From a virus (Duplodnaviria; Heunggongvirae; Uroviricota; Caudoviricetes): a stretch of 46,205 nucleotides of DNA. Below the pieces are notes generated by a model. It was not told the DNA's origin, made no database searches, and saw nothing but the letters and a program-made list of their open reading frames with translations. This document shows positions 1,577-46,137 of this stretch, piece by piece. Position 1 is the stretch's first letter; every line of letters begins with the position of its first letter. The stretch is from IMG/VR virus record IMGVR_UViG_3300012348_000120. One strand, 5' to 3'. The position numbers and the translations under genes were made by a program.

Positions 1577-1605
1577 TGTATATCGCGATTCGTCTCAGTT
1601 GTCAA
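1577..1605 (-). promoter_or_regulatory. Sigma70-type early promoter with GANTC in the spacer
   Basis: TTGACA-17 nt-TATACA; GAATC at 1587-1591, 8 nt from the -35 box. Confidence 0.75.
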
Positions 1606-1608
1606 GAG

Positions 1609-1812
1609 TTATTTGTAATATTTCTGCCCGACTCCGAGAATTCCCAATTCAACGGATTTCACATGATTGCATTTGGTTGTATGTTTTGTTTTGCAAGTGC
1701 AGGATAGTCCTTCATTGAACATTTCCACTACACAATTTCTGAATGTCCACACTGTTCCGACAAGATGGTTTCCTGCGGTAGAAATCTTATTATGTTGAAA
1801 GTATGTAATCAT
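1609..1812 (-). CDS. SWIM-type zinc-finger small protein
   Basis: CxC-x6-CxH motif (CTCKTKHTTKCNHV); SD GAGGG before ATG 1812. Confidence 0.55.
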   Translation of the reverse strand: MITYFQHNKISTAGNHLVGTVWTFRNCVVEMFNEGLSCTCKTKHTTKCNHVKSVELGILGVGQKYYK

Positions 1813-1833
1813 GTTTCCCTCGTTGATCACCTA

Positions 1834-1862
1834 TGAGTATACTGATTCGCAGAGAAAGTCAA
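1834..1862 (-). promoter_or_regulatory. Sigma70-type early promoter with GANTC in the spacer
   Basis: TTGACT at 1857-1862; GAATC at 1844-1848, 8 nt away; -10 is TACTCA (17-nt spacer) or TATACT (15-nt spacer). Confidence 0.6.
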
Positions 1863-1876
1863 GAGCCATTTTGTAG

Positions 1877-1913
1877 AAAAACCGAGTATACTGCGTCCAG
1901 TATCTCGGCTTTT
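1877..1913. terminator. Probable intrinsic terminator hairpin
   Basis: AAAAA-CCGAG(T)ATACTG-cgtc-CAGTATCTCGG-cTTTT, an imperfect stem with A/T runs on both sides. Confidence 0.5.
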
Positions 1914-2166
1914 CTTATGTTTAAGTTTTCTATATAAGGGTTCCTATCTATTAAGATAGTTAGATCGTTACCCTGTTATTCGGTATGATATGCAGTGACC
2001 GAACCAATACTATATAAAGTTTATGATATAATGATATAGAATGAAAAGCAGTGTCTACATCTGATATAAGTAAGTTTGTATGTTAGATTTATAATACAGC
2101 GACATATGATGTATACTATTATATCGCTCTATTATTTATTCAATATATCCTATTCGTAGTGATTCG

Positions 2167-3039
2167 TCAAGGACTTTGTTTGAATATTTCGGCATCAATG
2201 ATTGACTTGATATGCTCAAACATAAGCTGGTTTGATCTTATCCCTGGGTGTGGAAGGCTGGTGACCGATGAAAAATGGGTAAGATCATATTTTTTGTGGT
2301 TTGTATTTTTCAATATTTCGTATACTTCAATGGGAACATCACACGCAAAGTCTTGATAGAAATTGTGCCACCCATCTTTTGGACTTAACATATCGACATG
2401 AAAACTTGGACACTGAATTGTTTCCAATAGTGAAATGTAGTATTCTTCCTTTTCCAAGTATAGATCGTGTGTCGGTTTGTATTTTGGTGTTGTATTATAC
2501 TTTGCAAAATAGTAGGTTTCGTCATTGTTTAGTGAATTCATTTCAAGACGATCTGGATAAAATCCATACGACACCACTAAACTTGGCATGTTTTTGGTAT
2601 TCTTTAACCACGTTTGCAATAAACGTGTGGCAGTGTCTATTCCTGCGCCGCATACTGAGAAGTTATATAATTTAAGCGAGTAGTTATTTGCTAATTTATA
2701 TGCCCACGTATCTTCAAACCTTAAACCATGACCATAAGATATACTATCTCCAAACACCCATATGGTCTTATCGGGTTCATCGTATGTATACTGATGGGTG
2801 GAACGAAATCCAAATTTATTCTCTATGTATCTGACTGGGCCTTTTTCAATGGTAAGGTCTGTCACATTTTCAAAGTCAAATGAAAACAGCGACGACAGCG
2901 CATGTTTCTTTTCGTGTGATGAGTTTTTGTAAAGTTCTATTACTTTTTTGAAATTTTCATCGTTAGATTGTTTTCCACGTGTGAACAAATCACCATCTAT
3001 CGCACCTTTTGCGGTGTGTCTGTTCTCTGTGAATTCCAT
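2167..3039 (-). CDS. SGNH/GDSL-like hydrolase family protein
   Basis: Block I WVFGDSISYGHG, block II NFSVCGAG and a C-terminal xxHPG; start moved to ATG 3039 (purine-rich SD, downstream of the late promoter) from the ORF-track start at 3117. Confidence 0.6.
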   Translation of the reverse strand: MEFTENRHTAKGAIDGDLFTRGKQSNDENFKKVIELYKNSSHEKKHALSSLFSFDFENVTDLTIEKGPVRYIENKFGFRSTHQYTYDEPDKTIWVFGDSISYGHGLRFEDTWAYKLANNYSLKLYNFSVCGAGIDTATRLLQTWLKNTKNMPSLVVSYGFYPDRLEMNSLNNDETYYFAKYNTTPKYKPTHDLYLEKEEYYISLLETIQCPSFHVDMLSPKDGWHNFYQDFACDVPIEVYEILKNTNHKKYDLTHFSSVTSLPHPGIRSNQLMFEHIKSIIDAEIFKQSP

Positions 3040-3095
3040 ACCATTTTCCCCCTTCCCCATAACAAAAATAGTTATAGAGTGTTTCTCTCTATAAC

Positions 3096-3103
3096 TATTT
3101 ATG
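3096..3103 (-). promoter_or_regulatory. T4-like late promoter motif (CATAAATA)
   Basis: NATAAATA upstream of the SGNH gene. Confidence 0.5.
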
Positions 3104-3133
3104 GGCTTCAAGGACAATAATAAAGTAAGTTTA

Positions 3134-3448
3134 TTATTTCTTTTGAGATGCGTTATTGATGAAGTCGTAGAACTTCTGTGCAGATGTCAGAACATCATCG
3201 GCGGTTGGAATCTTTGGCATCTCAACTTGAGTTAGGATTTCACCAGTCTGTGGATCACGAGTTACAGTTTGTTCCCATCCTGCGAATTTTGCGTGAAACT
3301 CAAATTGTTCCATATCTTTTGCGATTTCAAGAACCTTAGTGCGAATTTCATAGCCATTCTTATTTGGCTTGAACTTTGGCATTGAATTTACCATAACTTC
3401 GCTCATCTGTGTCATAAAGTCTTGCATTTGTTTTTGCATGTCAGTCAT
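3134..3448 (-). CDS. Conserved phage hypothetical protein (KNGYEIR motif)
   Basis: SD GGAG before ATG 3448; late promoter upstream. Confidence 0.6.
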   Translation of the reverse strand: MTDMQKQMQDFMTQMSEVMVNSMPKFKPNKNGYEIRTKVLEIAKDMEQFEFHAKFAGWEQTVTRDPQTGEILTQVEMPKIPTADDVLTSAQKFYDFINNASQKK

Positions 3449-3499
3449 ATAATTTCTCCATATCTGTGTGTGTAAATAATTGCTCATCAATTATTTCTA

Positions 3500-3507
3500 T
3501 ATTTATA
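3500..3507 (-). promoter_or_regulatory. T4-like late promoter (TATAAATA)
   Basis: Exact T4 late consensus in an intergenic position. Confidence 0.65.
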
Positions 3508-3531
3508 CCAAATGGGTTGATTCGAGTCAAT

Positions 3532-3558
3532 AAAAAAGTCGCCCGAAGGCGACTTTTT
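3532..3558 (-). terminator. Rho-independent terminator after the porin gene
   Basis: AAAAAAGTCGCC-cgaa-GGCGACTTTTT. Confidence 0.85.
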
Positions 3559-3576
3559 AGGTCAATTCTGATTGGA

Positions 3577-4338
3577 TCAGAAGCGTAGAGCAGCACCAAG
3601 AGCGACAGTGGTGTCTTCGGTGTTGAAGTCATAACCAGCTTCAGCAAACAGGTCTGCGTTTTCGCTTACGTTATGAGTGTATCCAACGCCAAGAACATCT
3701 GCGCCTTCGTCGTCAAAGGTGACAAATGCTGATGCATTCTTGTATGAACCATTTAGTTCAACTGCATAGTCTTCTGCATAAGTCAGAACACCACCAAGGA
3801 CAACGCCGTTTCCGACTTTTGTATTTGCAGCGACACCAAGGGTCACGTCTTCGGTTGTAGTATTGTAATCAATACCAACGCGAGAATCAATGCCATTGAA
3901 AGTCGGAATAGCATAAGCTGCTTGGACGTTCTCAACATCGCCATCATTTAGACCAACTGATGCTGAGTATGCAAGACCAGAAACAACAAAAGTGCGATCA
4001 GTCGCAGCAGGATCAGCAAGAACGTTGCCAGAAATCTTGGTTAGGCCACCAGTGAAGTCAAAGACGCCATCCTGTTCGCCATAAGAAAGAGTGGTGTTAC
4101 CAACAATCGCACCAACATAGAAGTCGGTTAGGTCGGTTGCAATAATGTCATAGGTTGAGCCAGCAATAACGGTAAAGCCACCCAGATCATGCTTGCTATC
4201 AACAGAGAATTCGGAAGAAGAAGTTTCAACGCCTTCAGTTGATAGAACAGACACGTCAGTTCCGAATGATAGGTCAAGAGCGGATACTTGAGTCGCGATA
4301 AGACCGCATACTGCGGCTGCAATAAGTGTAGTTTTCAT
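3577..4338 (-). CDS. Outer-membrane beta-barrel porin-like protein (Rhodobacter porin style)
   Basis: Signal peptide MKTTLIAAAVCGLIATQVSA, alternating amphipathic beta-strands, acidic composition and C-terminal Phe (ALGAALRF); SD AAGGA before ATG 4338. Confidence 0.75.
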   Translation of the reverse strand: MKTTLIAAAVCGLIATQVSALDLSFGTDVSVLSTEGVETSSSEFSVDSKHDLGGFTVIAGSTYDIIATDLTDFYVGAIVGNTTLSYGEQDGVFDFTGGLTKISGNVLADPAATDRTFVVSGLAYSASVGLNDGDVENVQAAYAIPTFNGIDSRVGIDYNTTTEDVTLGVAANTKVGNGVVLGGVLTYAEDYAVELNGSYKNASAFVTFDDEGADVLGVGYTHNVSENADLFAEAGYDFNTEDTTVALGAALRF

Positions 4339-4459
4339 TTGTAAGTGATTCCTTTTTTGTATTCCAAATGAACTCATTGGTTCATTTGTATTAATATAAT
4401 CCATATGTGATGTGATTACAAGACTTATTTATACGAAGTCGCAAAGTGTGACATTTTTG

Positions 4460-5578
4460 TCACTGCTTTGGTTGGTTGCCCTGCAACGCTTCTGTAACTT
4501 CTTTGACAATTTGTTTAGCATTTTTTCCGTTCCAGTTTACATCAGACTTGAATATTTCCTGCATAGTATACTTTGTTTTCAAATAGTTCCAAGCCTTGAT
4601 ATTCTCAACCATCTGCTCAATACTTACATTTTCACCACCAAACTGTTTGTATGTAATGAAACTCATAATGTGCGATGGCGGTATGCGACCTTTATATCCA
4701 AATAGTTCGCCATGTTTCCACATACGTTCTGGATTCTTTTTCCCTTTGGTAGAATCTGGTTGGCCTTCTTCCCTGTCTTTAAATGGAAGATGCTTGTAAT
4801 CTGGGTTTGCTTGTGCTGCTTGTTTACCGTATAGATTATGTGCCACGTCAACGTCAGGCTTTATTCTGTTTTGATCTGGAACTTTGAAGTGAACAATGAT
4901 TGGAATACTGTTCATTGTCCATAGCCCACCTGATGAATGCATAGCATATCTGTGAACCAAAGATGATTTATCAGCAGCGAAAAATACATAACCAGGAGTG
5001 TGAACATCGCCGTAGTTTCCAGCTTTTTGTGGAACAATACCTTTTGACAACATAGATGCGACTGCATCAATATTTGTTCCATGCCATCCTTCTCTTGGAA
5101 GTTCGCCTCTGAATGTAGATGGGTCAGCATCTTGTCTGCTTCCTGTATCCATTTGCACACCCATAGAGAACGGACGTGGGTTGATACCAAATGCTTGCTT
5201 TATGTAAGAAGCAACTTTCTTGAACAACGGCGAAGTTTGCGGCGATTGTCCATATGTATGACGACGATATAGCAACCTTCCTTCATCCATACTGAACGCA
5301 ACTACGTCAGAACGGGTATCGCCTAAGTCCATCAATACTTCTAATGACCACCCCGCTTTTAGTTCGCTTTCATCCAATCCCATTTTTTGGCGTATGTCTG
5401 CCACAATCTGTTCTTTGTTTTCTTTCCAATCTGTTCGAGTAACTACCCAAATACTATCTGCATAGCCAAACACAACCGATCCTTCTGGAAGTTCACTACC
5501 TTGTGAAACTCGGTTCAAGCGAACTCTCATTTCAAAAAGGCCAACTCTACTTTCGGTGATGATTTCGTTTATCTTCAT
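4460..5578 (-). CDS. ADP-ribosyltransferase-fold (Tpt1/ART-like) protein, paralog 1
   Basis: WHGTN-x7-KGI, aromatic strand GYVFFAAD and IIVHFKVP; paralogous to 5828-6874. Confidence 0.55.
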   Translation of the reverse strand: MKINEIITESRVGLFEMRVRLNRVSQGSELPEGSVVFGYADSIWVVTRTDWKENKEQIVADIRQKMGLDESELKAGWSLEVLMDLGDTRSDVVAFSMDEGRLLYRRHTYGQSPQTSPLFKKVASYIKQAFGINPRPFSMGVQMDTGSRQDADPSTFRGELPREGWHGTNIDAVASMLSKGIVPQKAGNYGDVHTPGYVFFAADKSSLVHRYAMHSSGGLWTMNSIPIIVHFKVPDQNRIKPDVDVAHNLYGKQAAQANPDYKHLPFKDREEGQPDSTKGKKNPERMWKHGELFGYKGRIPPSHIMSFITYKQFGGENVSIEQMVENIKAWNYLKTKYTMQEIFKSDVNWNGKNAKQIVKEVTEALQGNQPKQ

Positions 5579-5588
5579 TTGAACTTCC

Positions 5589-5831
5589 TTATCGTATTCT
5601 GTAAGTGGTATGATAGTCTCTTATGTCGGAATGCCAAAACTTTCCTTTTGACATCGCACTTACCCATTCAGTAAACAAAGGTTTCCCAACATCAGAAACT
5701 ACATATCTTCGTCCACTGTGTAATGTCATCACAACGTCACCAGACCCGTCTTTAGCCAAACTCAAATCGTCAATCCAACTTGAAAATACGGCTTCTTCAT
5801 CCAGCATACGTTCTATTTCATTTATTTTCAT
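5589..5831 (-). CDS. KTSC-domain protein
   Basis: 80 aa with the pattern SSWI...LHSGRRY...W.SA.SKGKFW...IR..Y typical of KTSC. Confidence 0.7.
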   Translation of the reverse strand: MKINEIERMLDEEAVFSSWIDDLSLAKDGSGDVVMTLHSGRRYVVSDVGKPLFTEWVSAMSKGKFWHSDIRDYHTTYRIR

Positions 5832-6874
5832 AGGTCTTCTTCATCTTCTTCTGGTTCGAAATCAGCAATAATGTCGTCTGCACTGTAATGCAACCAGTTG
5901 TCATTTACATAATCCTGAACATCACCAAAGTTGTCAGCAACGTATACATATGCTTTCATATAGTCATTCATTTCTTCTCGGCTACGTTCTACATACCCAT
6001 CTTCTTCTGGGTATTCACTTGGTGGCATAGAGGTGGTATAGAACTCGACAAACATTGCTGGCGGTATTCTACCTTTGTAACCAAAAATTCCCATATCTTT
6101 CCATAGATTTTGAGGACGTTTTTGGTTTTTTATATAGTCATTGCCTCTTGCTGGCATAGTGGATGAGTTGCTATATTCCGAAGGCAAGTGTGGACTCCAA
6201 GAACCATACAATTCAGAAGCAACGTCATAGTCAGCAAATATTTTTGATTGGTCTGGAAGTTTGAACTTTATGATTACTGGAATGTCACTGTCTTTTGTTG
6301 CGGTTCTATGCGCATGAAATCGTGGAATACTATCGCCAACCGCAAAAAATATTGCGCCAGAAGTGTGGATATTCCCCCAGTTCCCCATATTCTGAGCGGC
6401 GATGCCTGTTTTTAGAATGCCACGCAATCTGCGAAGGCTCGTGCCATGATACCCATACTCTGGAAGTTTTCCTTTTATTTCATTTGGTGAATATGTAGAA
6501 TCAACATCACCAGCCATATTTCCATATTCTACATTTTTTATACCAAGTTGCTTCACAACTTTTTGTATAAGTTTAGACGTGACTGGATGCTGACGAAGGT
6601 CTGAGCCTTCAATAGTAAGAGTGTTGTCTATTTCGTTGTAGTTTCCAACCAATACATCTGGTCTTGCGTCAGCTATATCCGACACATTAGATGGCATCTT
6701 TCCAGCTACTTTCTGAATTTCGGTTCGAATTCCGTCATCATCGTTGTCGTATTCGTCATAGTTTACAATCCATATACTATCTTTGAATGCTATAAGCAAA
6801 TCTCCACTTTCAGTCTTGTGGCGAATAATCATTTCTGACAGCATCGTTTCTGTAATTTCACTGAATCGCATCAT
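5828..6874 (-). CDS. ADP-ribosyltransferase-fold (Tpt1/ART-like) protein, paralog 2
   Basis: YHGTS-x7-TGI, GAIFFAVG and VIIKFKLP; shares the GELFGYKGRIPP/DMGIFGYKGRIPP motif with paralog 1. Confidence 0.55.
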   Translation of the reverse strand: MMRFSEITETMLSEMIIRHKTESGDLLIAFKDSIWIVNYDEYDNDDDGIRTEIQKVAGKMPSNVSDIADARPDVLVGNYNEIDNTLTIEGSDLRQHPVTSKLIQKVVKQLGIKNVEYGNMAGDVDSTYSPNEIKGKLPEYGYHGTSLRRLRGILKTGIAAQNMGNWGNIHTSGAIFFAVGDSIPRFHAHRTATKDSDIPVIIKFKLPDQSKIFADYDVASELYGSWSPHLPSEYSNSSTMPARGNDYIKNQKRPQNLWKDMGIFGYKGRIPPAMFVEFYTTSMPPSEYPEEDGYVERSREEMNDYMKAYVYVADNFGDVQDYVNDNWLHYSADDIIADFEPEEDEEDL

Positions 6875-6892
6875 GTTTCTCCATGTTTAGTG

Positions 6893-6900
6893 TATTTATC
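6893..6900 (-). promoter_or_regulatory. Late promoter motif (GATAAATA)
   Basis: Immediately upstream of the ART-KTSC-ART operon. Confidence 0.6.
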
Positions 6901-6906
6901 AAAAAC

Positions 6907-6931
6907 AAAAGGGTGGCAAATGCCACCCTTC
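6907..6931 (-). terminator. Rho-independent terminator after aox
   Basis: AAAAGGGTGGC-aaat-GCCACCCTT. Confidence 0.8.
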
Positions 6932-6951
6932 ACTTCAATCTAACGATGAAT

Positions 6952-7551
6952 TTACTTGCTGATTAGTTCATCTGCCATTTGGTGGTTTACATCAGCATGA
7001 CCTTGCTCGTCCAACCTTACTGCTATAATTACATCCCGTAAAGTTGCATTAGGTTTCAAAGTATAGTAGTCTATTGCTATTTTTGGTGCTGGTATATTCT
7101 CTGTTCTACCAGAGTCAATTTCGTCTAAGTATTGTGTGTAACTCACAACTGCTTGGTTTTCAAAGTAACCAATCATTCGGTGTGCAGTTTTTGGAAAGAA
7201 AACATATAGAACGAAGTAGAAGTGCCAAAACACAAATTGAGCAAACAGAACCAGCAATCGTTCAAACCAGTTTGGTTTTGCAATCTCAATAAAAATCATC
7301 AGATGCATACGCTCGTTTTCTGCTTCGTCCAATAAGGTTTTGATCCATCCACGTTCATCTGGTTTCATCTTACGAAGGCTTCGCAAGTGTTGCCACATTC
7401 CAGCCACCATTCCTGGAACTCCCGCGACAGTTTCTAACACTACGGCTCTATGTCCATATCGTTTTGCAAAAAATGTATCTGCAAACCAACGGAAACTCAT
7501 AGTCAAACCGTAAGCTATTTTATCCGAAAATCCAGTAGGTGTTGGTTCCAT
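6952..7551 (-). CDS. aox: Alternative oxidase (ubiquinol oxidase, di-iron carboxylate)
   Basis: All di-iron ligand motifs are present: LETVAGVPGMV, DEAENERMHL, FENQAVVSY and RLDEQGH. Confidence 0.93.
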   Translation of the reverse strand: MEPTPTGFSDKIAYGLTMSFRWFADTFFAKRYGHRAVVLETVAGVPGMVAGMWQHLRSLRKMKPDERGWIKTLLDEAENERMHLMIFIEIAKPNWFERLLVLFAQFVFWHFYFVLYVFFPKTAHRMIGYFENQAVVSYTQYLDEIDSGRTENIPAPKIAIDYYTLKPNATLRDVIIAVRLDEQGHADVNHQMADELISK

Positions 7552-7612
7552 TTATTGGCATAAATCCTCATATTTTGATTGATGCACTCTGTGCATACTT
7601 CTATCACCTGAA

Positions 7613-7620
7613 TATTTATC
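7613..7620 (-). promoter_or_regulatory. Late promoter motif (GATAAATA) upstream of aox
   Basis: Same motif as the other intergenic copies. Confidence 0.6.
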
Positions 7621-7659
7621 CAACGAAAGTAGTTTGAGTATATACTTCATCTGATTCTT

Positions 7660-8008
7660 TCTAAGTTGTGGTGTGAGTGTCACCGTTTCTGTTTCGAGGT
7701 AGGTGACCCACCCAAGTAGATTAGGCAGCTAGTGCGTAAGCTACAGGAGCAAAGTTTTCGTTTGCATTTAGTTTTTTGGCTGAATAACGTAGGCCAACAC
7801 GGTAATCTCCACTTGCTTTCAACACCTGTCGATCCTATTTCGAGCCCATCAAAGATACACTTCCTACATTTCGTAGTTGCGTCTAACTGCCTTTGACTGT
7901 CCATACGGTTAGACCTAGTTTTCGTATGCGTCATCAAAGTGTATCTGTGGTGGACCCGCTGGGTACTGCCCCCAGGTCCAGAATGTCTATCGTCTGCTTC
8001 AACGATTA
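7660..8008 (-). ncRNA. ssrA: Circularly permuted (two-piece) tmRNA, alphaproteobacterial type
   Basis: Order on the minus strand: T-arm CTGGG-GGCAGTA-CCCAG plus CGGGTCC-ACCA (CCA ends 7948); 100-nt intervening segment; 5' acceptor strand GGGCTCG-AAATAGGATCGAC (starts 7847) giving G3.U70; pk1-like TTGGC/GCCAA; resume context TAAAT-GCA; tag ANENFAPVAYALAA* (7765-7721). Outer boundaries are approximate. Confidence 0.92.
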
Positions 8009-8014
8009 CAATAC

Positions 8015-8045
8015 TATTTATGCCACAATGTTGATCAAATGTCAA
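8015..8045 (-). promoter_or_regulatory. tmRNA promoter (TTGACA-17-CATAAA, overlapping a CATAAATA late motif)
   Basis: -35 at 8040-8045 and late-type element at 8015-8022. Confidence 0.55.
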
Positions 8046-9406
8046 GAAAAACTTGAACGATTGCTAACATAATTTTCCACACAAACCTTTTTTTTGTTGT
8101 AAAATTCCTCTGTGTAGAAATCAACATGACGAATATGTATCATATCTTTCCAGTCATACCCAACTCCACCAAACATACTAAGCGCAAATGCAGCCAAGGT
8201 TGTTCGGTTTTGATTCTGTATTCTAAACTCATCTGCTATGTTATTTGCAGTGTCTAAGTTCCATATGCCATTTTCCCAATAACTATCATCATGAGGAAAA
8301 ACGAAACCGTATTTTTCTGCGTTCACGGCAAACTCGGACTTCTTTGAACTCAGATCAAGACCTATGAAATAACCGTTCAAATCATTATCTTGTAGCCATT
8401 TGTTATCATCTCGTAGTTGCTGCGGGGTTTGACCAGGCAAACCAGCGATGAACCCCATTTCCCAGTTTATATCTGGATACCACTGTTTTTTCAGATGCAG
8501 TAAAAATTCTTTTCCATGTTGACCGCTCCATCCTTTTCCAATTAATTTTGAACTCTGCGTCTCAAAGGATTCTATTCCAAAAAAGCAACTTCTCATTCCG
8601 CTTTTTCGTAATGAGTTTATCATAGATGGATACCGCCAAATTAAATCCGCTCTACAATACCCAACCCATTCTAACTCAAACGGCATTCTTTTGGCAATGC
8701 TGACTAACGCCTCAACTTTCTCTTCGCTTTCGTTTACTGTGTCATCAACATAGCTAAACCGAGTTACACCAAAATTCTCATAATAATACAGTATTTCTTG
8801 TTCTACTATATTAAAGTTACGAAGGTAAGTTCCTGGCCTTTTGCCTATCAGTCTATAATCACAAAACTTGCATTTGAATTTGCAACCCCGTCCTAATTCA
8901 ATAGGCAAAACCTCAGTCGGCAATATGGCATCGTTTTTAGTGAATACGGTTCCTGCTGTCTTAATGTCAAATTGACTATGGGTCAAATTGAAAAATATTG
9001 ACAAGTCTTCTTCTGCAAAGCTCTCAAACTTTATCCACGATTCATCAAACAAATGTGTTTTATGCCCGCCGACTATCCATTTTATTTTAGGATATTCATT
9101 TTCAATTTCTGATTTGTTGCTGTATAGCCACTGTGGATGTTTTTCAGAATCCTTAATGAAGGTAGAACTTACTCCGATATATTCTGTTTCGTCGGTGATA
9201 AAACTTTTGGTAAGATGCAGTAATTGATCTTGCGACATTGAATTGGCGAAATCAATAACGATTGTATTGAAATTGTGTTGTCTCAACCAACTCGCGATTC
9301 GATGCGGCCCCAAATACCTACTGAAATGAGCGCCATTATTATTGACAGTAAAACGATTGTCGTCAAAATTTGAACTCGTTATATTCCATATGATAAACTT
9401 TGCCAT
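8042..9406 (-). CDS. Cobalamin-binding radical SAM protein (class B methyltransferase-like)
   Basis: CxxxCxxC (ELGRGCKFKCKFC); N-terminal B12-binding-like domain (GPHRIAS, YIGVSSTF, IVGGH); FFGIESF and FIAGLPGQT. Confidence 0.85.
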   Translation of the reverse strand: MAKFIIWNITSSNFDDNRFTVNNNGAHFSRYLGPHRIASWLRQHNFNTIVIDFANSMSQDQLLHLTKSFITDETEYIGVSSTFIKDSEKHPQWLYSNKSEIENEYPKIKWIVGGHKTHLFDESWIKFESFAEEDLSIFFNLTHSQFDIKTAGTVFTKNDAILPTEVLPIELGRGCKFKCKFCDYRLIGKRPGTYLRNFNIVEQEILYYYENFGVTRFSYVDDTVNESEEKVEALVSIAKRMPFELEWVGYCRADLIWRYPSMINSLRKSGMRSCFFGIESFETQSSKLIGKGWSGQHGKEFLLHLKKQWYPDINWEMGFIAGLPGQTPQQLRDDNKWLQDNDLNGYFIGLDLSSKKSEFAVNAEKYGFVFPHDDSYWENGIWNLDTANNIADEFRIQNQNRTTLAAFALSMFGGVGYDWKDMIHIRHVDFYTEEFYNKKKVCVENYVSNRSSFS

Positions 9407-9420
9407 CTTAATGCCAACAG

Positions 9421-10199: not shown

Positions 10200-10200
10200 A

Positions 10201-19483: not shown

Positions 19484-19578
19484 TATTTATCTATCCATAG
19501 ATATGCGTTTTATGCAACTCGAGTCTTCCAAAATGTGGGTTGATATAGGTCAATTTTACTGATATATTCATATAAATA
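19484..19578. promoter_or_regulatory. Divergent pair of late promoter motifs
   Basis: GATAAATA on minus (19484-19491) and TATAAATA on plus (19571-19578). Confidence 0.6.
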
Positions 19579-21910: not shown

Positions 21911-21918
21911 TATTTATC
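21911..21918 (-). promoter_or_regulatory. Late promoter motif (GATAAATA)
   Basis: Overlaps the upstream stop, ~25 nt before the kinase ATG. Confidence 0.55.
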
Positions 21919-27954: not shown

Positions 27955-27962
27955 TATTTATC
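27955..27962 (-). promoter_or_regulatory. Late promoter motif (GATAAATA)
   Basis: Upstream of the 380-aa gene. Confidence 0.55.
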
Positions 27963-30458: not shown

Positions 30459-30466
30459 TATTTATC
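30459..30466 (-). promoter_or_regulatory. Late promoter motif (GATAAATA)
   Basis: Followed by an AGGAG SD. Confidence 0.6.
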
Positions 30467-33097: not shown

Positions 33098-33105
33098 TAT
33101 TTATC
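33098..33105 (-). promoter_or_regulatory. Late promoter motif (GATAAATA)
   Basis: Overlaps the helicase stop codon. Confidence 0.55.
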
Positions 33106-34552: not shown

Positions 34553-35559
34553 TTTATTTTTAGTTTAACGTTTATCTTGGTAGTATTGGAAATTCTACCG
34601 TCAATTATACTCTTCAGCGTATAAAACTTTCCATATCGGTTTACAGCATCCGCCGCATCTTTTATATCAGATTGCCACTCTGGAAACGAAACACTCCATC
34701 CATTTTCGATGGCTTGCTTTGCCAATTTCTTTCCTGCATTATCTCGGTCGGGACATACAATGATCTCTCCCTTATATTGATTCAGATAATCAATCTGTGC
34801 CTGTCCAGCCTCGTTTGATAGAACTCCTACACAATCAAGAGCGGCAGCGTCTATCACACCTTCAACCACGATAAGAAATTTGGTTGGCTCTAAGATTTTA
34901 TGAATGTTATACAAATACCCATTGGGTGCTTGAGCAAGATATTTAGTTTCTGATCTACCCGTAAAGTCTCTTGCTGCGTATCCAACAATCGTGCTTCCCT
35001 GCCAATATGGGAATATAACTCGCTTACGAAACTTCATATCATTGCACCAATATGCATCAACATGATCGTAAACACCACGATCAATAAGATACTTTGCGGC
35101 ATATATGGAATTCTCTGGCGGTTCGTCTGCCTTCATGAGCCATTCAGTTAATGGAAATGTTCCTTTCGGTAATTGAACTTCTGGGAAAGCGGGAAGCGAA
35201 ATCGTATTATGTGTTGGAACAAAAAAACTTGGACCGCTTGATAGTTCTTTTTCACGAATACTATCAAGTTGCAATCTTTTTATATCGCTGTCTGGTATTC
35301 CCAATAGCTTCATAAACCGAAGAAACTTCTTGTTTACTGTTCTTCCCTTACGATGTGATGCAGTGAAACCACAGTTGAAGCAATGGTATGAAATCAAATC
35401 AGTTTCAAACCGAATTCCACCACGCTGTCGGGTGTCGGGTCTTGGTTCTCCATTGTCAACGCAGCAAGGACAGTTGAATGACCTCCAACCGCCCGAACTG
35501 TTCCTGCTATTGCTTGGAATATAAGATAAAACTACTTCTTGAATATTCATACTCACCAA
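34549..35559 (-). CDS. dnaG: DNA primase (T4 gp61-like)
   Basis: Zn finger CPCC...CFNC, Toprim VVEGVIDA and CPDRDNAG. Confidence 0.88.
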   Translation of the reverse strand: MVSMNIQEVVLSYIPSNSRNSSGGWRSFNCPCCVDNGEPRPDTRQRGGIRFETDLISYHCFNCGFTASHRKGRTVNKKFLRFMKLLGIPDSDIKRLQLDSIREKELSSGPSFFVPTHNTISLPAFPEVQLPKGTFPLTEWLMKADEPPENSIYAAKYLIDRGVYDHVDAYWCNDMKFRKRVIFPYWQGSTIVGYAARDFTGRSETKYLAQAPNGYLYNIHKILEPTKFLIVVEGVIDAAALDCVGVLSNEAGQAQIDYLNQYKGEIIVCPDRDNAGKKLAKQAIENGWSVSFPEWQSDIKDAADAVNRYGKFYTLKSIIDGRISNTTKINVKLKIK

Positions 35560-35586
35560 TATATATCACTGGCAACGAAAAGTCAA
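35558..35586 (-). promoter_or_regulatory. Sigma70-like promoter of the primase-helicase operon
   Basis: TTGACT-17-TATATT; no GANTC in the spacer. Confidence 0.55.
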
Positions 35587-39009: not shown

Positions 39010-39199
39010 CATTGTCATTCTCCTTTTTTTTAAGAGTGAAAGTTCCATCGGAATTATCAAACCATTCGATAACATCCCCTGGCTCCCAACCAACTTGGTT
39101 GAGTATATCTTCACTGAACTCTATAACTAAATCTTCTTCTTTGCCATTCTTCATGACAGTCGCCAACCAGCGATTGTCTCCTATTTTTTCTACGTTCAT
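39002..39199 (-). CDS. AbrB/MazE-like swapped-hairpin small DNA-binding protein
   Basis: DLVIEFSEDILNQVGWEPGDVIEW. Confidence 0.7.
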   Translation of the reverse strand: MNVEKIGDNRWLATVMKNGKEEDLVIEFSEDILNQVGWEPGDVIEWFDNSDGTFTLKKKENDNGQ

Positions 39200-39897
39200 A
39201 ACCCGGCTTTCTCCAATACATTCCGAACAAACTTAACATCATCACTCCGAACTTGAAACTTTCGTGTCCAGAACTCTGGGTCCATATAATCATTCACCAA
39301 CTTCAACTCCTGATCAGAAAACTCACTTAGGAGTTCAACACCAGAATTGCAGTTAAAAATAATCCAAGGACTAATACGTCCAGATCGTATCCAGTAGATA
39401 ATGCGCGACCGACTATTCTCCCGAAAGAATACATTAAACGGTTTATCATTTTCAGTCCCCCAATCTTGCATCAACATGATGCCACGTTCTAACGCCCGTT
39501 CCGCAGTTTCTTTTTTATTCAATTCATGAATATATGTTTCATATACTGCTTCATTGCACCATTTGTCAACCGCAATGCTGGAACGAATAACAAAGTCAAT
39601 GAAGTTTTCTGGGTCAACTGCATTGATTTGTAGCATATGCCTTCCAAACTTCGTGAAGGCTGTGTAATACTGGGAACTCGCAAACTGCTCATAGGTCTTC
39701 TCTTTCTTTTCGCCCATAGAGATTTCATAAAATCTACGAAACGCTAAGAAGCCAAGAACAACATACTTCTCGTCTTTGTTAAGCCATCTACGCTTTTGTT
39801 CGCATAAATGCGCAGACAAAGTTCGTTCTCTCTGAAATGTTTTGCTGCAAAACTGACACGTAAAACTCATTAACTCAACACACCCACTCGGTTGCAA
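39196..39897 (-). CDS. C2H2 zinc-finger-containing conserved phage protein
   Basis: CQFCSKTF-x7-SAHLC; start may be MSFTC. Confidence 0.7.
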   Translation of the reverse strand: MQPSGCVELMSFTCQFCSKTFQRERTLSAHLCEQKRRWLNKDEKYVVLGFLAFRRFYEISMGEKKEKTYEQFASSQYYTAFTKFGRHMLQINAVDPENFIDFVIRSSIAVDKWCNEAVYETYIHELNKKETAERALERGIMLMQDWGTENDKPFNVFFRENSRSRIIYWIRSGRISPWIIFNCNSGVELLSEFSDQELKLVNDYMDPEFWTRKFQVRSDDVKFVRNVLEKAGL

Positions 39898-40540: not shown

Positions 40541-40769
40541 AGTTTATTACTCCTTGCATCTTTTCTATTATTACATCAAACATAAATGAAATGTATGAAC
40601 AATCTTGTAGGGCCATCTTCTCAAAGTGATATGTAAACCCATAGGATGATTCCGTTATTTTTGAATAAGGACGGATGCTATGTGCATACAAAAAGGCTTC
40701 AAACGAAGCTGATGCTGTAGACGAAACAAATAAACTTACATCATACAAAGTGTCGTTGACCACTGACAT
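40533..40769 (-). CDS. Hypothetical protein, 78 aa
   Basis: Operon position. Confidence 0.45.
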   Translation of the reverse strand: MSVVNDTLYDVSLFVSSTASASFEAFLYAHSIRPYSKITESSYGFTYHFEKMALQDCSYISFMFDVIIEKMQGVINFD

Positions 40770-40989
40770 AGTTTATTCTCCCTCCAAACATCATACAAAA
40801 CGTAGCCGCATCTAACTCATGTTCGAATGCGAAGTAACAAGCAAGTTCCATATTATCCGCTGATCCAGGCCAATACCCATCATAAATGTTGTCTTTGTAT
40901 GACGTAGCATAAGCAATACCAGCGTTTTCACACCAATCTTTTGCTTCTCGCATGCCAGTTCTGTTTACTTTGAGTATGATCTTATACAT
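40741..40989 (-). CDS. Hypothetical protein
   Basis: ATG 40989 overlaps the upstream TGA (TGATG). Confidence 0.5.
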   Translation of the reverse strand: MYKIILKVNRTGMREAKDWCENAGIAYATSYKDNIYDGYWPGSADNMELACYFAFEHELDAATFCMMFGGRINYVSGQRHFV

Positions 40990-41489
40990 CAGAAAAAGTC
41001 GTAGCTGTTCAATACATCTGGAATACGGTTCATATCTTTTACAAAATATGCACAACGAGGGTTTTGTCTATGTTCAAGTGGTATTGCCAGTATATGCCCA
41101 TATTTGAGTTTTGGCAAGAACCATTTCACATCTGCAAAGATATTATTTACACGAATGGGTGCCCATTCCTGAGAAAATCCATTCAATGGATTCGTGATGA
41201 TCGTTTGAAAGTCTCTTTCATTTATACTGGTGAGAGGAACAAATTCCAACTGTCCCAAGTCACGGTCGCCAATCAGAATATTCCAGTCAAGCGGCATCTC
41301 TATTACATGGTTTCCAATTGACAAACTGATGCTTGGAGTGTTAAACGTTTCAATAAACACCAACGGTATGAAAAAGAAGTCGGGTTCTGACTTGTCTGTC
41401 ACATCCATGACACAGTAACGAATGTCTTCTATTTCATCTGGAAGATCATTCATCTCAAAACAAGTGTTTTCGGGGGTTAGTATTTTAAT
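40989..41489 (-). CDS. Conserved protein downstream of uvsW, possibly a degenerate Hint fold; probable ATT start
   Basis: GGAG SD 7 nt before an in-frame ATT (41489) gives xKILTPENTCFEMND; the first ATG is at 41453; an in-frame stop lies at 41508-41510. Confidence 0.65.
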   Translation of the reverse strand: MKILTPENTCFEMNDLPDEIEDIRYCVMDVTDKSEPDFFFIPLVFIETFNTPSISLSIGNHVIEMPLDWNILIGDRDLGQLEFVPLTSINERDFQTIITNPLNGFSQEWAPIRVNNIFADVKWFLPKLKYGHILAIPLEHRQNPRCAYFVKDMNRIPDVLNSYDFF

Positions 41490-41500
41490 TTTTCTTCTCC

Positions 41501-42952
41501 TTAGTAATTAACTTTGTTGACACGATAGGGATACTGCGCATCCGCATAATATTTCTTTCGTTCCGTCAAATGACGCTTACTGAACTTACACCGACTTGTG
41601 AAGTCCCATACCTGAACAAAGTCTTTGTCTTTCGCTGTCCGAACACCCCGTCCAATAGACTGAATGACACGAACAAACGACTTTCCTGGTTCTATCATAA
41701 TTAGATTGAAAATGCGTGGAATGTTTAGCCCAACCGCAGCAACGCCATAGGTGGCAACTGTAATGCTGTTGACAGACTGGTTGATTTCATCATATTCATT
41801 TTGACGGTCATCTGTTTTCATTTTTCCACTAACAAAAACAGTTCCAGGTGGAAGTCGTTCAATTAGGGCATTGCCAGCCGCCAAACGGTCTACAAGAACA
41901 AGCGTGTTGCCCGTCTTTGAGATTTCCATAATTTTCTGTGCCATAAAATCGGCACGTTTAGAATCTTCCAACAGAAATTTGAGTTCAGACTGATAGTTGT
42001 TATACTCGGCAGTCTCCTGCGTCTGTATAATCTCTACATGGCACTTAGACAATACGCCTTCGTCTTGAAGGGTCTTTGCAGTGAGTTGGTGAATTACTTT
42101 TCCAAGACTCGCATTGATAGATGCAACGTCCCAATCACCCTTTGGAATAGTTCCAGTCAGCCCCCAACGCAATGGAACATTCGCAAATACACCAGTCAAC
42201 AGTTCTTTCAGCACATCTGCTTTTGCCTGATGCACCTCATCAACAATGACACATACCACATCGGCAATAAAACTCTCAATGTCAGCCTTACCTTCTTTGG
42301 TTTGCTTCAGTAGCGAGTTCAGGGATTGCCAAGTGCAAATAGTATGAGTTTTTCCAATGTCCTTCTTGTCGCCAAAGTAAACACCATAATCCAATCCGCA
42401 GTTTTCATAATCCTTGGCGGTCTGTTTCACAAGGTCTTTGTTTGGAACGATTACAATTGATCTACCATACTTCTCTACCATACTCGCCATAGTGGCGGTC
42501 ATGATGGTCTTACCAGCACCCGTGGCGACTTCCTGCAATGCCTGTGGGTTCTCAATGAACTTGTTGATGATTTCAACCTGATAATCACGAAGCCGAATGA
42601 GTTCGCCTTCATGCTTGTGACCTATTGGCCAAGTCTTGTCACCCCAGTAGTCTTCTGCGATTTGGTCAAATTCAAGTGTGCCATGATTCAAACGATTATC
42701 TTCAATGTCGAACTCATAGCCAGCATCAACAATAATCGGAACAATATCATCCAGTAGGTTCAAGTAAGTTCTTCCACCCACATCACAGAACCTAACTGTG
42801 CCATCCCATCTGCCAAGTTTATAGGCAGGGGTGTGGTAGGCATGCGGAAGAAAGAATTTCAGCTTGTCGGAACACTTTCGCCGTGTAGATGGGTCAAGCC
42901 CATCCAACTTAATGTTTACCTCATCTTTGATTACAATTTTACATTTTTTCAT
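41501..42952 (-). CDS. uvsW: UvsW-like superfamily 2 DNA helicase
   Basis: RLRDYQ, VATGAGKT, VIVDEVH, WGLTGT and QSIGRGVR; start probably MKKCK. Confidence 0.9.
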   Translation of the reverse strand: MKKCKIVIKDEVNIKLDGLDPSTRRKCSDKLKFFLPHAYHTPAYKLGRWDGTVRFCDVGGRTYLNLLDDIVPIIVDAGYEFDIEDNRLNHGTLEFDQIAEDYWGDKTWPIGHKHEGELIRLRDYQVEIINKFIENPQALQEVATGAGKTIMTATMASMVEKYGRSIVIVPNKDLVKQTAKDYENCGLDYGVYFGDKKDIGKTHTICTWQSLNSLLKQTKEGKADIESFIADVVCVIVDEVHQAKADVLKELLTGVFANVPLRWGLTGTIPKGDWDVASINASLGKVIHQLTAKTLQDEGVLSKCHVEIIQTQETAEYNNYQSELKFLLEDSKRADFMAQKIMEISKTGNTLVLVDRLAAGNALIERLPPGTVFVSGKMKTDDRQNEYDEINQSVNSITVATYGVAAVGLNIPRIFNLIMIEPGKSFVRVIQSIGRGVRTAKDKDFVQVWDFTSRCKFSKRHLTERKKYYADAQYPYRVNKVNY

Positions 42953-42974
42953 GTGTATCCTCAACGTTTCGTAT

Positions 42975-43003
42975 AATATACCATATTAAGTCCTTGATTT
43001 CAA
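42975..43003 (-). promoter_or_regulatory. Sigma70-like promoter of the uvsW operon
   Basis: TTGAAA-17-TATATT; no GANTC in the spacer. Confidence 0.55.
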
Positions 43004-43006
43004 TAG

Positions 43007-43033
43007 AAAAACGATCCCCGAAGGGATCGTTTT
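43007..43033 (-). terminator. Rho-independent terminator after the AAA ATPase
   Basis: AAAAACGATCCC-cgaa-GGGATCGTTTT. Confidence 0.85.
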
Positions 43034-43054
43034 GAAGATTATTTCAACCAATGG

Positions 43055-44044
43055 TTACTTGCAGCAAGTCAAGTTGGCAGTCCGTTCCCAAGATTGCGGC
43101 ATTGCCTTGCGAAGATCGGCAATCTTGGTGATCATACGCAGCGAGATTTCGCGCAGACGAGATTGGTTGTTTTCCATATAGGACATAATCTCATCTTGAT
43201 CTTGATCAGAGAACCCGTAGGATTTCAGCATACCTTGACGGACAATCTGCTTACACCGCAGAAGTTTATCGCGAGTCGTGCTGATGGTCAAATCCAGATA
43301 GTGGCAGCGCGACATAATAGCTTCAAGGTGATCTTTGATCTTAGACGACTTCACCTTGTCAAACTTCAAGTTGGTGATGAAGATCACCGAACCCTTGAAC
43401 TCAAATTGATCAGGAACGCCTTCACGGCGCAGGAAGTGCGAGTCGGAGTGCCAAGAGATTTTACGCTTCTTACCACTGTCCAGAGCGGCTTTGAGAATGT
43501 TCAAAGCATCTTCGTTGAACAGAATCGAGTCGCAGTCATCAAGCACCACGATATTCTTTTCATCGCTGTATTTGTAGAGCGTGGAATACAGACCGATGGG
43601 CGACATGGTTCCCTTCACAAACGTGTGGCGCAGAGGACGGTCAGCCATAATGTCAAACAAGGAGTCTTGTTCAAGAACCTGTTCAACGCCATAGGTTTTA
43701 CCAACGCCGGGAGGACCAGAAACAACCATACCGCGCACAACACCGTCAATGGTGGCACCAGTCATATCATCAAGAATCTTGAAACGTTCCGCAATGCGTT
43801 CAATTGCTTCTTCATCGCTCTCAGTCACACAAACGGTTTCGCCGCTTGCTTCACCATCAATCGTAACGTCATCTTCCGATTCGACACGAATACGAATTTT
43901 GGGCTTCTTGACCGCACTGTCAGACGCATCAACCGTAACGAAAAATCCACCCTTGGCAGAAGGTTTCAACCCCTGCACCAAGGGAAACGAACCAGAAATC
44001 GGTTGGTTGTTATACGAACCGTTTTCAACATGGGCAATCTGCAT
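43055..44044 (-). CDS. AAA+ ATPase with an N-terminal extension
   Basis: Walker A GPPGVGKT, Walker B VLDDCD, FITN and SRC; early promoter upstream. Confidence 0.85.
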   Translation of the reverse strand: MQIAHVENGSYNNQPISGSFPLVQGLKPSAKGGFFVTVDASDSAVKKPKIRIRVESEDDVTIDGEASGETVCVTESDEEAIERIAERFKILDDMTGATIDGVVRGMVVSGPPGVGKTYGVEQVLEQDSLFDIMADRPLRHTFVKGTMSPIGLYSTLYKYSDEKNIVVLDDCDSILFNEDALNILKAALDSGKKRKISWHSDSHFLRREGVPDQFEFKGSVIFITNLKFDKVKSSKIKDHLEAIMSRCHYLDLTISTTRDKLLRCKQIVRQGMLKSYGFSDQDQDEIMSYMENNQSRLREISLRMITKIADLRKAMPQSWERTANLTCCK

Positions 44045-44074
44045 CGTGTTCCTCTTTCTCTTGCTTACAGGATA

Positions 44075-44103
44075 TGTATACAGTGATTCGTAGAGATTGT
44101 CAA
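44075..44103 (-). promoter_or_regulatory. Sigma70-type early promoter with GANTC in the spacer
   Basis: TTGACA-17-TATACA; GAATC at 44085-44089. Confidence 0.8.
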
Positions 44104-44106
44104 GTG

Positions 44107-44259
44107 TTAATCATCGCACATTCCAGTGAGCGCAGCTATTGTCGCAGACTTTCCATAAAGAAATGTCTCCCATCCACACTTACTGAATGTATAAAATATC
44201 GCAGAAAATCCAAGAAACAACACAAAGGCAATCATCATTGCGGCGGCAAATCGAGTCAT
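44107..44259 (-). CDS. Small membrane protein (50 aa), missed by the ORF track
   Basis: MTRFAAAMMIAFVLFLGFSAIFYTFSKCGW...; AAGGA SD. Confidence 0.6.
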   Translation of the reverse strand: MTRFAAAMMIAFVLFLGFSAIFYTFSKCGWETFLYGKSATIAALTGMCDD

Positions 44260-44286
44260 TATATTTTCCTTATTAATTGTGTTGAT

Positions 44287-44571
44287 TTAGCCGACCTGTC
44301 CGTCAATAATGCGAACAAGGTCTTCAACGTATACCCCGTTTACTTCTTTATCAACCTTCCAGTCGAGGTTGCGAATACGGGCGAATACCACGTTGTAGAG
44401 GTCCATTCCTTCGTCATACTTGACGTAGACATAACCTTTCCATTTGACAAGTCCAGAGGTCTTGAACTTCAACCCATCGCCCATTGCGACAAAATCTTTT
44501 GCGCCCCATGCCATGAAGGCGCGGCGGTCAAGAGCACGAATTTGGTCACGAATGATGGTGGCTACGTTCAT
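44287..44571 (-). CDS. Early hypothetical protein (MNVATIIRDQIRALD...)
   Basis: GAGG SD before ATG 44571, downstream of the promoter. Confidence 0.7.
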   Translation of the reverse strand: MNVATIIRDQIRALDRRAFMAWGAKDFVAMGDGLKFKTSGLVKWKGYVYVKYDEGMDLYNVVFARIRNLDWKVDKEVNGVYVEDLVRIIDGQVG

Positions 44572-44597
44572 ATGTTTTTCCTCTTGGTTACAGATCA

Positions 44598-44626
44598 TGT
44601 ATACAGTGATTCGTAGGGAATGTCAA
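44598..44626 (-). promoter_or_regulatory. Sigma70-type early promoter with GANTC in the spacer
   Basis: TTGACA-17-TATACA; GAATC at 44608-44612; near-identical to 44075-44103. Confidence 0.8.
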
Positions 44627-44628
44627 TG

Positions 44629-44652
44629 AAAAATCGCCCAGATGGGCGATTT
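44629..44652 (-). terminator. Rho-independent terminator after the methylase
   Basis: AAAAATCGCCC-agat-GGGCGATTT. Confidence 0.8.
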
Positions 44653-45550
44653 AAAATTCAAATAAATTAACATCGGGGTTGGGCATATTGTCTTTTATTC
44701 TTTTTTCTGTGATTTCACAATATTCTTGCGACAAATCCATGCCGATATATTTATGACCGAGCGATATCGCTGCCACACCAGTTGAGCCACTTCCGTTGAA
44801 AGGATCAAGAATTATAGAATTTTTTTTCGGTGCGTATACATTTATTAACCATTTCATTAAGTCTATCGGTTTTGGGGTAGGGTGAGTATTATATTCTCCT
44901 CGCTCGTTCCTTGAAACTCTGGGAGCATAAAAGTATTTTTGATGATCTTGAATATCAAACAATCCAATAATATTACTTGGGTGCCGACCATTTGGGTTTG
45001 CATCTACTTTTTCAGTGTCCTGATCCGTAGACTTCATCACTGTACCACCGAAAGCCCTGCGATTTGCGCCACCGCTTACCCAACCAGTTGGTGGTTTTTT
45101 ATCCCAAGGAATACGATTATCTTCAATGTTAATTGTTCCAGTCCCCCACCGTTCAATGTTTTCTTTAATTGTTTTTTCACTAATTGGCTTCTGCGCCACC
45201 GCAATAGGTTCGTGCGCTGGCTTTAATTTATTTGCTTTAGCCATTTTTGTGGTGATCATCCAGATCACTTGATCTTTAATTTGGAATCCACCGTCTTCCA
45301 TTTTAGTTGCCATTCTGTGATATAATTCGGGAGAACAAAAACTCAACGCCCATCCACCCGGTTTTAATACTCTTAACACCTCTCTCCATGTTTCAATCGG
45401 AGGAACATCTTTGTCCCATCCAACGCCCGCAATATCCATACCATATGGTGGATCAGTCACTACTAAATCTACACTGTTTTCATCTAACTCTCTTAGAAGG
45501 GTTTGGTTGTCACCGCACTGAATATGATATTTCTCATTAGTAAACTGCAT
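44651..45550 (-). CDS. N6-A/N4-C DNA methyltransferase (beta class)
   Basis: VVTDPPY, HPTPKP and ILDPFNGSGSTG. Confidence 0.92.
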   Translation of the reverse strand: MQFTNEKYHIQCGDNQTLLRELDENSVDLVVTDPPYGMDIAGVGWDKDVPPIETWREVLRVLKPGGWALSFCSPELYHRMATKMEDGGFQIKDQVIWMITTKMAKANKLKPAHEPIAVAQKPISEKTIKENIERWGTGTINIEDNRIPWDKKPPTGWVSGGANRRAFGGTVMKSTDQDTEKVDANPNGRHPSNIIGLFDIQDHQKYFYAPRVSRNERGEYNTHPTPKPIDLMKWLINVYAPKKNSIILDPFNGSGSTGVAAISLGHKYIGMDLSQEYCEITEKRIKDNMPNPDVNLFEF

Positions 45551-46070
45551 TTAATACACTCTCTTCACAAATTTTTCGTTCTTCGTGGGCAAAGTAATCA
45601 ACCTTTTTTTTCCCACCAGATTGAGTATACATCGATCTAATGTAAAAGTCAAATCCTCTCTTGTCCTGCCACCCGTCCATTTTTTTATATTTTGTCAGAA
45701 CCTCATTCATTTCAATTAACATAGAATCATACAATTTTCTTTTTTGCAAGGTAAGAATGTCGTTTGCGTTATATAAAGTGGTAGAATTATACTTTTTAGA
45801 TGAAAAAATATAGATGGTATCAGGTTTGGGTAATCCACCATTATACATTGGATAATGCCCTTTGCTGCTTTTACATTCAATGCTGTATCTTTTCTCGCCA
45901 CAAAATACATAAAAATCGGGAGAATTTTGAATTCCATTTGGCTGTGACAAATAATTCAATTTATGTTTAATTAGTAATTGTTCTACCTGATTCTCGTGTT
46001 CTGGGTTATCTTGCGAATTCGGTTTATATGGCAGTGCCAAACAATCAGAAAAAAATTTATTAAGAGACAT
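45537..46070 (-). CDS. PD-(D/E)XK type II restriction-endonuclease-like protein
   Basis: QNSPDF-x9-IECKSS and YNGGLP; overlaps the methylase start. Confidence 0.7.
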   Translation of the reverse strand: MSLNKFFSDCLALPYKPNSQDNPEHENQVEQLLIKHKLNYLSQPNGIQNSPDFYVFCGEKRYSIECKSSKGHYPMYNGGLPKPDTIYIFSSKKYNSTTLYNANDILTLQKRKLYDSMLIEMNEVLTKYKKMDGWQDKRGFDFYIRSMYTQSGGKKKVDYFAHEERKICEESVLNAVY

Positions 46071-46108
46071 CGTTCTTCGGCTCCCACCGTTTCTTGAATT
46101 ACATTGAT

Positions 46109-46137
46109 AAGATAAGGTGATTCGTTACAATTGTCAA
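46109..46137 (-). promoter_or_regulatory. Sigma70-type early promoter with GANTC in the spacer
   Basis: TTGACA-17-TATCTT; GAATC at 46119-46123. Confidence 0.7.

Follow-up and report, generated by a model that had tools for sequence, protein, structure and literature searches.

A conserved GcrA-box-like element in sigma70-type promoters of an uncultured phage clade

In Alphaproteobacteria, CcrM methylates GANTC sites, and the sigma70 cofactor GcrA prefers methylated sites of the YGAKTCG type near promoters, as is known from Caulobacter. The mom promoter of phage Mu, a Dam-sensitive promoter at which GATC is read through OxyR, is an earlier case in which phage transcription reads the adenine methylation of the host. 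Early promoters of T4-type phages are strong, of the sigma70 type and conserved beyond the two hexamers. Here, we describe a class of sigma70-type promoters in a stretch of 46,205 bases (hereafter, the window) of the uncultured tailed-phage record IMGVR_UViG_3300012348_000120. In these promoters a CGAATC hexamer, the box, occupies a fixed position in the spacer and resembles the binding site of GcrA. The mom system differs from this box in its motif (GATC), its host class and a reader that is not a sigma70 cofactor. We found no earlier account of GcrA boxes in phage promoters in the literature.

GcrA binds domain 2 of sigma70 and stimulates open-complex formation (PMC4647560). Its recognition motif is TGATTCG, or more broadly YGAKTCK, and the sites in GcrA-regulated promoters fall either in a narrow band around -20 or anywhere between +2 and +30 (Haakonsen, 2015; PMC4647560). 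Upstream GcrA boxes were also reported at -20±1 and -30±2, and the cryo-EM scaffold derived from the promoter PcsM reads TTGACA-CCCGGG-CGAATC-CCTGC-TATAAT on the non-template strand (Wu, 2023; PMC9976885). Two phage systems come close to the one described here. Alphaproteobacterial phage promoters regulated by CtrA, and the "lytic deferment" associated with them, likewise rely on phage sites for a master regulator of the host cell cycle, but that regulator is CtrA (TTAA-N7-TTAA) and methylation is not involved (Mascolo, 2022; PMC9437464). The phiCbK-like Caulobacter phages, which encode GcrA homologs (Gill, 2012; PMC3556154), are likewise tied to the GcrA circuit; the present clade instead has DNA sites, and gcrA was not detected in five of its members.

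The window contains five promoters with the box, all on the minus strand and all where a preliminary description of this DNA had placed them. The pattern TTGACW-N8-GAATC has 5 matches in the window, compared with an average of 0.13, and at most 2, in 100 dinucleotide-preserving shuffles, and the enriched motif is confined to promoters. On the coding strand the sites read TTGAC(A/T)-N7-CGAATC(A/G)-N3 followed by the -10 hexamer. The base before GAATC is C in 5/5, as had been claimed, and the base after it is A in four and G in one. Positions of boxes and hexamers are counted here from the -10 hexamer, as start sites are predicted only, and on this count the box falls at about -21 to -17, in agreement with the earlier placement.

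In promoter P1 (1577-1605), the -35 hexamer TTGACA (1600-1605), the box CGAATCG (1587-1592) and the -10 hexamer TATACA (1577-1582) lie upstream of the open reading frame (ORF) 1079-1546. P2 (1834-1862), which belongs to ORF 1609-1830, has TTGACT and the box CGAATCA (1844-1849); its -10 is TACTCA if the box is taken to end 4 nucleotides (nt) before it, or TATACT with a 15-nt spacer. P3 (44075-44103; box 44085-44090) reads TTGACA-N7-CGAATCA-N3-TATACA, and the gene behind it encodes an AAA ATPase (43055-44044, minus strand; phrog_1250, weakly clamp-loader-like). P4 (44598-44626; box 44608-44613) is immediately preceded by a terminator hairpin and serves ORF 44287-44598 (phrog_9437). P5 (46109-46137; box 46119-46124; -10 TATCTT) is followed by ORF 45537-46070 and an overlapping methyltransferase gene. 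The combination of TATACA with a downstream CTGTA, previously noted in three promoters, was recovered in P1, P3 and P4.

The observation is confirmed to be larger than first noted, since it includes a sixth box and extends through the clade. The CGAATC hexamer occurs 18 times in the window, 18/18 on the minus strand. Seven of the 18 copies are intergenic, where intergenic DNA makes up about 6% of the window, and 7/7 of these adjoin a TTGAC -35 element. The sixth box promoter (2142-2170, minus strand) contains TTGACGAATCAC (2161-2170) and the -10 hexamer TATATT. Its box (2161-2166) overlaps the -35 hexamer TTGACG and is centred at about -28, and it is kept in the close relative G001 although the adjoining spacer differs. 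Between this promoter and a strong terminator hairpin lies a stretch of 271 nt free of ORFs (1866-2136, minus strand), which folds far better than its shuffles (z = -5.9), shares 81% identity with G001 and had no family match in Rfam; it is a candidate phage small RNA. A further site (3502-3530, minus strand), in which TTGACT is directly followed by CGAATCA (3519-3530; box 3519-3524), overlaps the late-type element TATAAATA. It is a doubtful member of the class and was dropped as a firm one because G001 has no box at the orthologous position.

The phage box agrees with the published GcrA boxes in consensus, orientation and location. The five window boxes read (T/C)GATTCG on the template strand, within the YGAKTCK/YGAKTCG context, and TGATTCG is the top GcrA consensus. 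The phage box ends 4 nt before the -10 hexamer, with its centre at about -19 and thus within the published -20±1, and the sixth box, at about -28, falls within -30±2. CGAATC lies on the non-template strand in all phage copies, in the same orientation as in the PcsM complex. Compared with the GcrA-activated promoters of Caulobacter crescentus, PcsM among them (PMC4647560, PMC5887438, PMC9976885), the phage promoters are alike in the heptamer, the strand of CGAATC, the spacer location near -20, the second class near -30 and the sigma70 core. They differ in that they lie on a phage genome, that the box is near-invariant rather than degenerate, and that 4 nt rather than 5 nt separate it from the -10. 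The downstream box class of the Caulobacter promoters (+5 to +30) was not seen in the window. Two unusual promoters of the related 342-kb contig G003 may be members of such a class: one (G003:C1 ~253145, minus strand) has an inverted box immediately downstream of its -10 (TGATTCG on the coding strand), and in the other CGAATCA follows the -10 by about 20 nt.

The AAA ATPase gene was used as query for relatives and retrieved 63 IMG/VR loci. In relatives with 62-97% identity in this protein, the orthologous promoter consists of TTGACA, 6-7 freely varying bases, CGAATC, 4 bases and TATAnn, with a single TGAATC variant among them. Relatives at 50-53% identity have a plain TTGACT-N17-TATAAT without the box. 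Five larger IMG/VR contigs of the clade (G001-G005) contain 7, 14, 26, 11 and 13 copies of TTGACN-N6-8-CGAATC, in total 71 and all on one strand, while the reversed-pattern control had 0 matches in the same contigs. When 72 distinct copies were aligned on the box, the distance from box to -10 was constant and that to the -35 varied by 1 nt, so that the spacer measures 17 nt in 60 of the copies and 16 nt in the other 12. The base 3' of the box, which lay outside the search pattern, is A in 61 and G in 10, or Y on the other strand in 71/72. A typical box promoter of the clade thus has a good -35 (often CTTGACA), a spacer of 16-17 nt, the box 4 nt before the -10 and a weak TATAnn -10. In G003, 26/31 matches to TTGAC-N-NGANTC are CGAATC, and therefore the reader would need the flank and the middle base beyond the CcrM site, as GcrA does. 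These comparisons show the box to be under purifying selection in the relatives.

The region 7-30 nt 3' of the -10 of box promoters is also conserved in the window and its relatives, with T/A-G-T-A-A/G near the predicted +1, followed by a C-AAGAGA leader and then a ribosome-binding site. Outside the clade, no exact match to the window promoter was found in IMG/VR, and a blastn search of cultured phages with the consensus promoter cassette gave chance matches only. The cultured relatives Phosso, Atu_ph07 and PA5oct showed no clear enrichment of TTGAC-N-GANTC.

A second class of sigma70-type promoters in the same DNA has no box. Inspection of the sequence bore out its absence, as first described, from the primase/helicase promoter (35558-35586, minus strand; TTGACT-N17-TATATT) and the uvsW promoter (42975-43003, minus strand; TTGAAA-N17-TATATT), both of which have T at position -7 (-7T). 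In an unbiased list of intergenic TTGACW-N16-18-TAnnnn candidates from G003, -7T was present in 4/16 box promoters as opposed to 26/30 box-less ones (Fisher p = 5e-5). The window shows a like trend, with TATACA in three box promoters compared with TATATT for primase and uvsW. Alphaproteobacterial promoters without -7T depend on helpers (PMC7703639). The combination of a strong -35 with a defective -10 and a fixed site at -20 is the architecture of an activator-dependent promoter, and the -7T deficit would fit such dependence. A low share of -7T had also been considered as a marker of an alphaproteobacterial host; it was dropped, as -7T is present in most of the box-less promoters in the same genome.

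GANTC sites are rare in this DNA, with 109 observed in the window and 174±13 expected. Observed/expected ratios (O/E) for the 512 pentamers were obtained from a maximal-order Markov model, with samples of 120 kb for Atu_ph07, Phosso and PA5oct. In the window, GAATC/GATTC has an O/E of 0.71 (rank 1 of 512) and GACTC/GAGTC of 0.61 (rank 4), and in the 342 kb of G003 the values are 0.60 (rank 1, z = -14.5) and 0.76 (rank 42). The corresponding pairs are 0.78 and 0.99 for the Agrobacterium phage Atu_ph07, 0.95 and 0.93 for Phosso, and 1.16 and 1.22 for the Pseudomonas phage PA5oct. GANTC is avoided nearly everywhere except in the promoters, and therefore the site is likely to matter in the host. 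Short palindromes are strongly depleted in the window as well, most of all GTAC (3 sites, about 124 expected) and then TCGA, CATG and CCGG, and AAGCTT, CAGCTG, CTGCAG and AGATCT have 0 copies; this depletion is typical restriction avoidance.

The host class was approached through the transfer-messenger RNA (tmRNA). The window encodes a two-piece (permuted) tmRNA of alphaproteobacterial type (7678-8049, minus strand), with 112.6 bits to RF01849 (gathering score 50, model positions 1-355), 120 bits to RF04321 and the tag ANENFAPVAYALAA predicted by ARAGORN. An alpha_tmRNA (RF01849) above the gathering score is also present in 5/5 relatives. Among three cultured relatives it was found only in Phosso, whose host is Sinorhizobium, and PA5oct and Atu_ph07 are without it, the latter a jumbo phage of 38% G+C that infects an alphaproteobacterium. 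Five distant relatives without the box, seen as 5-14% fragments, gave no alpha_tmRNA match. A search for host genomes with the back-translated tag, by two over-specific patterns and contig scans, found none. An alpha-type tmRNA in the window and in five relatives is therefore suggestive of an alphaproteobacterial host. The tmRNA promoter itself is box-less in the window and has the box in G001 and G002, 3 nt before the -10.

The second gene of the P5 unit (44651-45550, minus strand) encodes a beta-class DNA methyltransferase of the DPPY type (N6_N4_Mtase; PF01555, 127 bits). A TDPPY motif is seen in its alignment, and it has the beta-class N6-adenine fold. As a CcrM ortholog it was rejected: it scores 80 bits against the CcrM equivalog model NF050803, whose cut-off is 830 bits, and aligns there through its catalytic and S-adenosylmethionine motifs only. 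In the PDB, DpnA-type enzymes match it best, and its alignment with CcrM is confined to residues 221-290. A second methyltransferase gene, of which the window end leaves the 3' end (46128-46205, minus strand), has a translation that ends like a G001 enzyme of 222 amino acids, and its TGA stop falls inside the -35 hexamer of P5. Numbers of PF01555 methyltransferases differ among the relatives (two each in G001 and G002, one in G005, none in G003 and G004), and the 44651-45550 enzyme is not orthologous to theirs. Because content varies and the enzymes are not orthologous, no single phage methyltransferase goes with the box; methylation of the sites, if it occurs, would fall to the host CcrM in at least some members of the clade. 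No match to gcrA (PF07750) was found in the five relatives, a 92%-complete genome included, and a GcrA encoded by the phage itself, which the preliminary description had allowed for, is thus unlikely.

Taken together, we favor with modest confidence the reading that the box promoters bring in host GcrA through a methylated box. In an alphaproteobacterial host, CcrM would methylate GANTC on the phage DNA, and GcrA would ride with RNA polymerase, bound to domain 2 of sigma70. It would read the methylated box near -20 and aid open-complex formation at promoters that open poorly alone. The genes behind the box, probably early, would then be expressed best from methylated phage DNA in GcrA-containing, replicating S-phase cells. 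From sequence, we infer the host class, the methylation, GcrA as the reader and the early timing. Every prediction of this reading that could be tested at the sequence level held, namely enrichment, conservation, consensus, position, strand, GANTC avoidance and an alpha-type tmRNA; the part that invoked a phage-encoded GcrA did not fare as well.

Several observations weigh against recruitment of GcrA. Both a PF01555 methyltransferase and gcrA are missing from the 92%-complete relative, whose packaged DNA would then need methylation by the cell-cycle-limited CcrM of the host. Restriction of the HinfI or TfiI type can also produce GANTC avoidance, and the step from tmRNA to host class has a single cultured calibrator. 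Phosso and Atu_ph07, cultured relatives that infect Alphaproteobacteria, make no use of the box, and a scan of cultured alphaproteobacterial phages with a GcrA matrix gave no positional signal (Mascolo, 2022; PMC9437464). In addition, the box is more invariant than YGAKTCK, its middle base being always A and its 5' flank almost always C, which could mean another, more sequence-specific reader.

Such a reader is the alternative that we take most seriously, unlikely as we consider it. The box would be the operator of a different DNA-binding protein, either of the host or phage-encoded (virion-packaged or early), which activates the promoters or later shuts them off, and the resemblance to a GcrA box would be coincidence or convergence. 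That the motif (A-CGAATC-A-C-T) is longer and more invariant than the degenerate GcrA consensus would be explained, as would the absence of the box from cultured phages of Alphaproteobacteria, and a place between -35 and -10 is a classical repressor position too. However, this would require a chance match of a 7-mer to the top GcrA consensus, in the same orientation and at most 1 nt from the published position. The ORFs behind the box promoters gave no match to a helix-turn-helix, GcrA-like or other DNA-binding family in a relaxed Pfam scan, the association with a -10 lacking -7T fits activation better than repression, and genome-wide GANTC avoidance suggests that the site matters in the host context.

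Explanations that dispense with a dedicated reader appear weaker. Spacer sequence can influence sigma70 promoters, and the box might be an intrinsic spacer element touched by host RNA polymerase or sigma70, or adenine methylation might alter polymerase binding directly. A constant distance to the -10, with that to the -35 varying by 1 nt, would suit this idea. We nevertheless hold it to be quite improbable: about half of the sigma70-type promoters in the same genomes are box-less and have a consensus -10 instead, we know of no intrinsic spacer element of this sequence, and the second conserved position (2161-2166, over the -35) suits a tethered reader better than a fixed polymerase contact. 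Mobile early-promoter cassettes are known in T4-type phages, and the copies here are alike throughout, including an A/T-rich upstream part, TGTAAT near the start and the CAAGAGA leader, as they would be if the box were a functionless by-product of cassette copying and common descent. This is very improbable, as the box is invariant across 72 distinct copies whose adjoining 6-7 bases are almost random, orthologous promoters keep it at 62-69% protein identity, and GAATC is otherwise the most avoided pentamer.

If host GcrA does read the box, a further and rather unlikely step would be for the box to act as an epigenetic gate or timer. The class would be switched on when fully methylated DNA enters an S-phase cell that contains GcrA, and on progeny DNA that outpaces the cell-cycle-limited CcrM it would lose activation and turn off without a phage repressor. 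Methyltransferases driven by the box (P5) would, in some members, re-arm the DNA before packaging.

With respect to timing, we infer that the box promoters form an early class, since they are of the sigma70 type, have small ORFs of unknown function and DNA-metabolism genes downstream, and contrast with 12 late-type promoters. The latter are intergenic (G/T)ATAAATA motifs whose first base is preferably G and which precede start codons by 10-58 nt, for example at 3500-3507, 4426-4433, 6893-6900, 19484-19491, 21911-21918, 27955-27962, 30459-30466 and 33098-33105. By its motif, this putative class has the pattern of T4-type late promoters.

The source of the window (39% G+C) is best explained as an uncultured freshwater jumbo phage of roughly 350 kb, a relative of PA5oct and Phosso. 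Its closest cultured relatives are the Sinorhizobium phage Phosso (52-57% amino-acid identity) and PA5oct-like Pseudomonas phages (39-53%), and a nucleotide search with the window found no near-identical DNA among cultured phages. Related uncultured contigs reach 342 kb, with an estimated completeness of 92%. Metagenomes with matching DNA are from freshwater and microbial mat, with a share of at most 0.41, and probably contain relatives; no RNA data set turned up among the runs with matches. Window genes include those for UvsW, a DnaB-like helicase, a Toprim primase, the AAA ATPase, the beta-class DNA methyltransferase and numerous ORFs without assignment; about 40 ORFs were searched against PHROGs and Pfam and mostly gave no functional match. 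The nearest protein-atlas cluster of a nucleotide-sugar epimerase is viral and thus gives no hint of the host.

Other features of the window include two adjacent paralogous genes (4460-5578 and 5828-6874, minus strand), both phrog_11974. The N-terminus (residues 11-47) of the 233-residue product of ORF 39196-39897 (minus strand) is weakly C2H2 zinc-finger-like, below threshold. Long open frames on the plus strand lie antisense to the AAA ATPase gene (43094-44086), ORF 44287-44598 (44074-44616) and ORF 1079-1546 (1004-1537), and are probably a by-product of composition and not genes.

If recruitment of GcrA is correct, an environmental clade of giant phages would use GcrA, the host reader of N6-methyladenine, as the built-in activator of one promoter class. 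This would be the first phage regulon keyed to the CcrM/GcrA epigenetic cell-cycle circuit, and the outcome of infection would depend on the cell-cycle stage of the host and on the methylation history of the phage DNA. The clade would also offer dozens of natural, compact and near-identical GcrA-box promoters for studying how GcrA compensates for a weak -10. The box would provide a sequence signature for assigning uncultured phages to alphaproteobacterial hosts that carry CcrM and GcrA.

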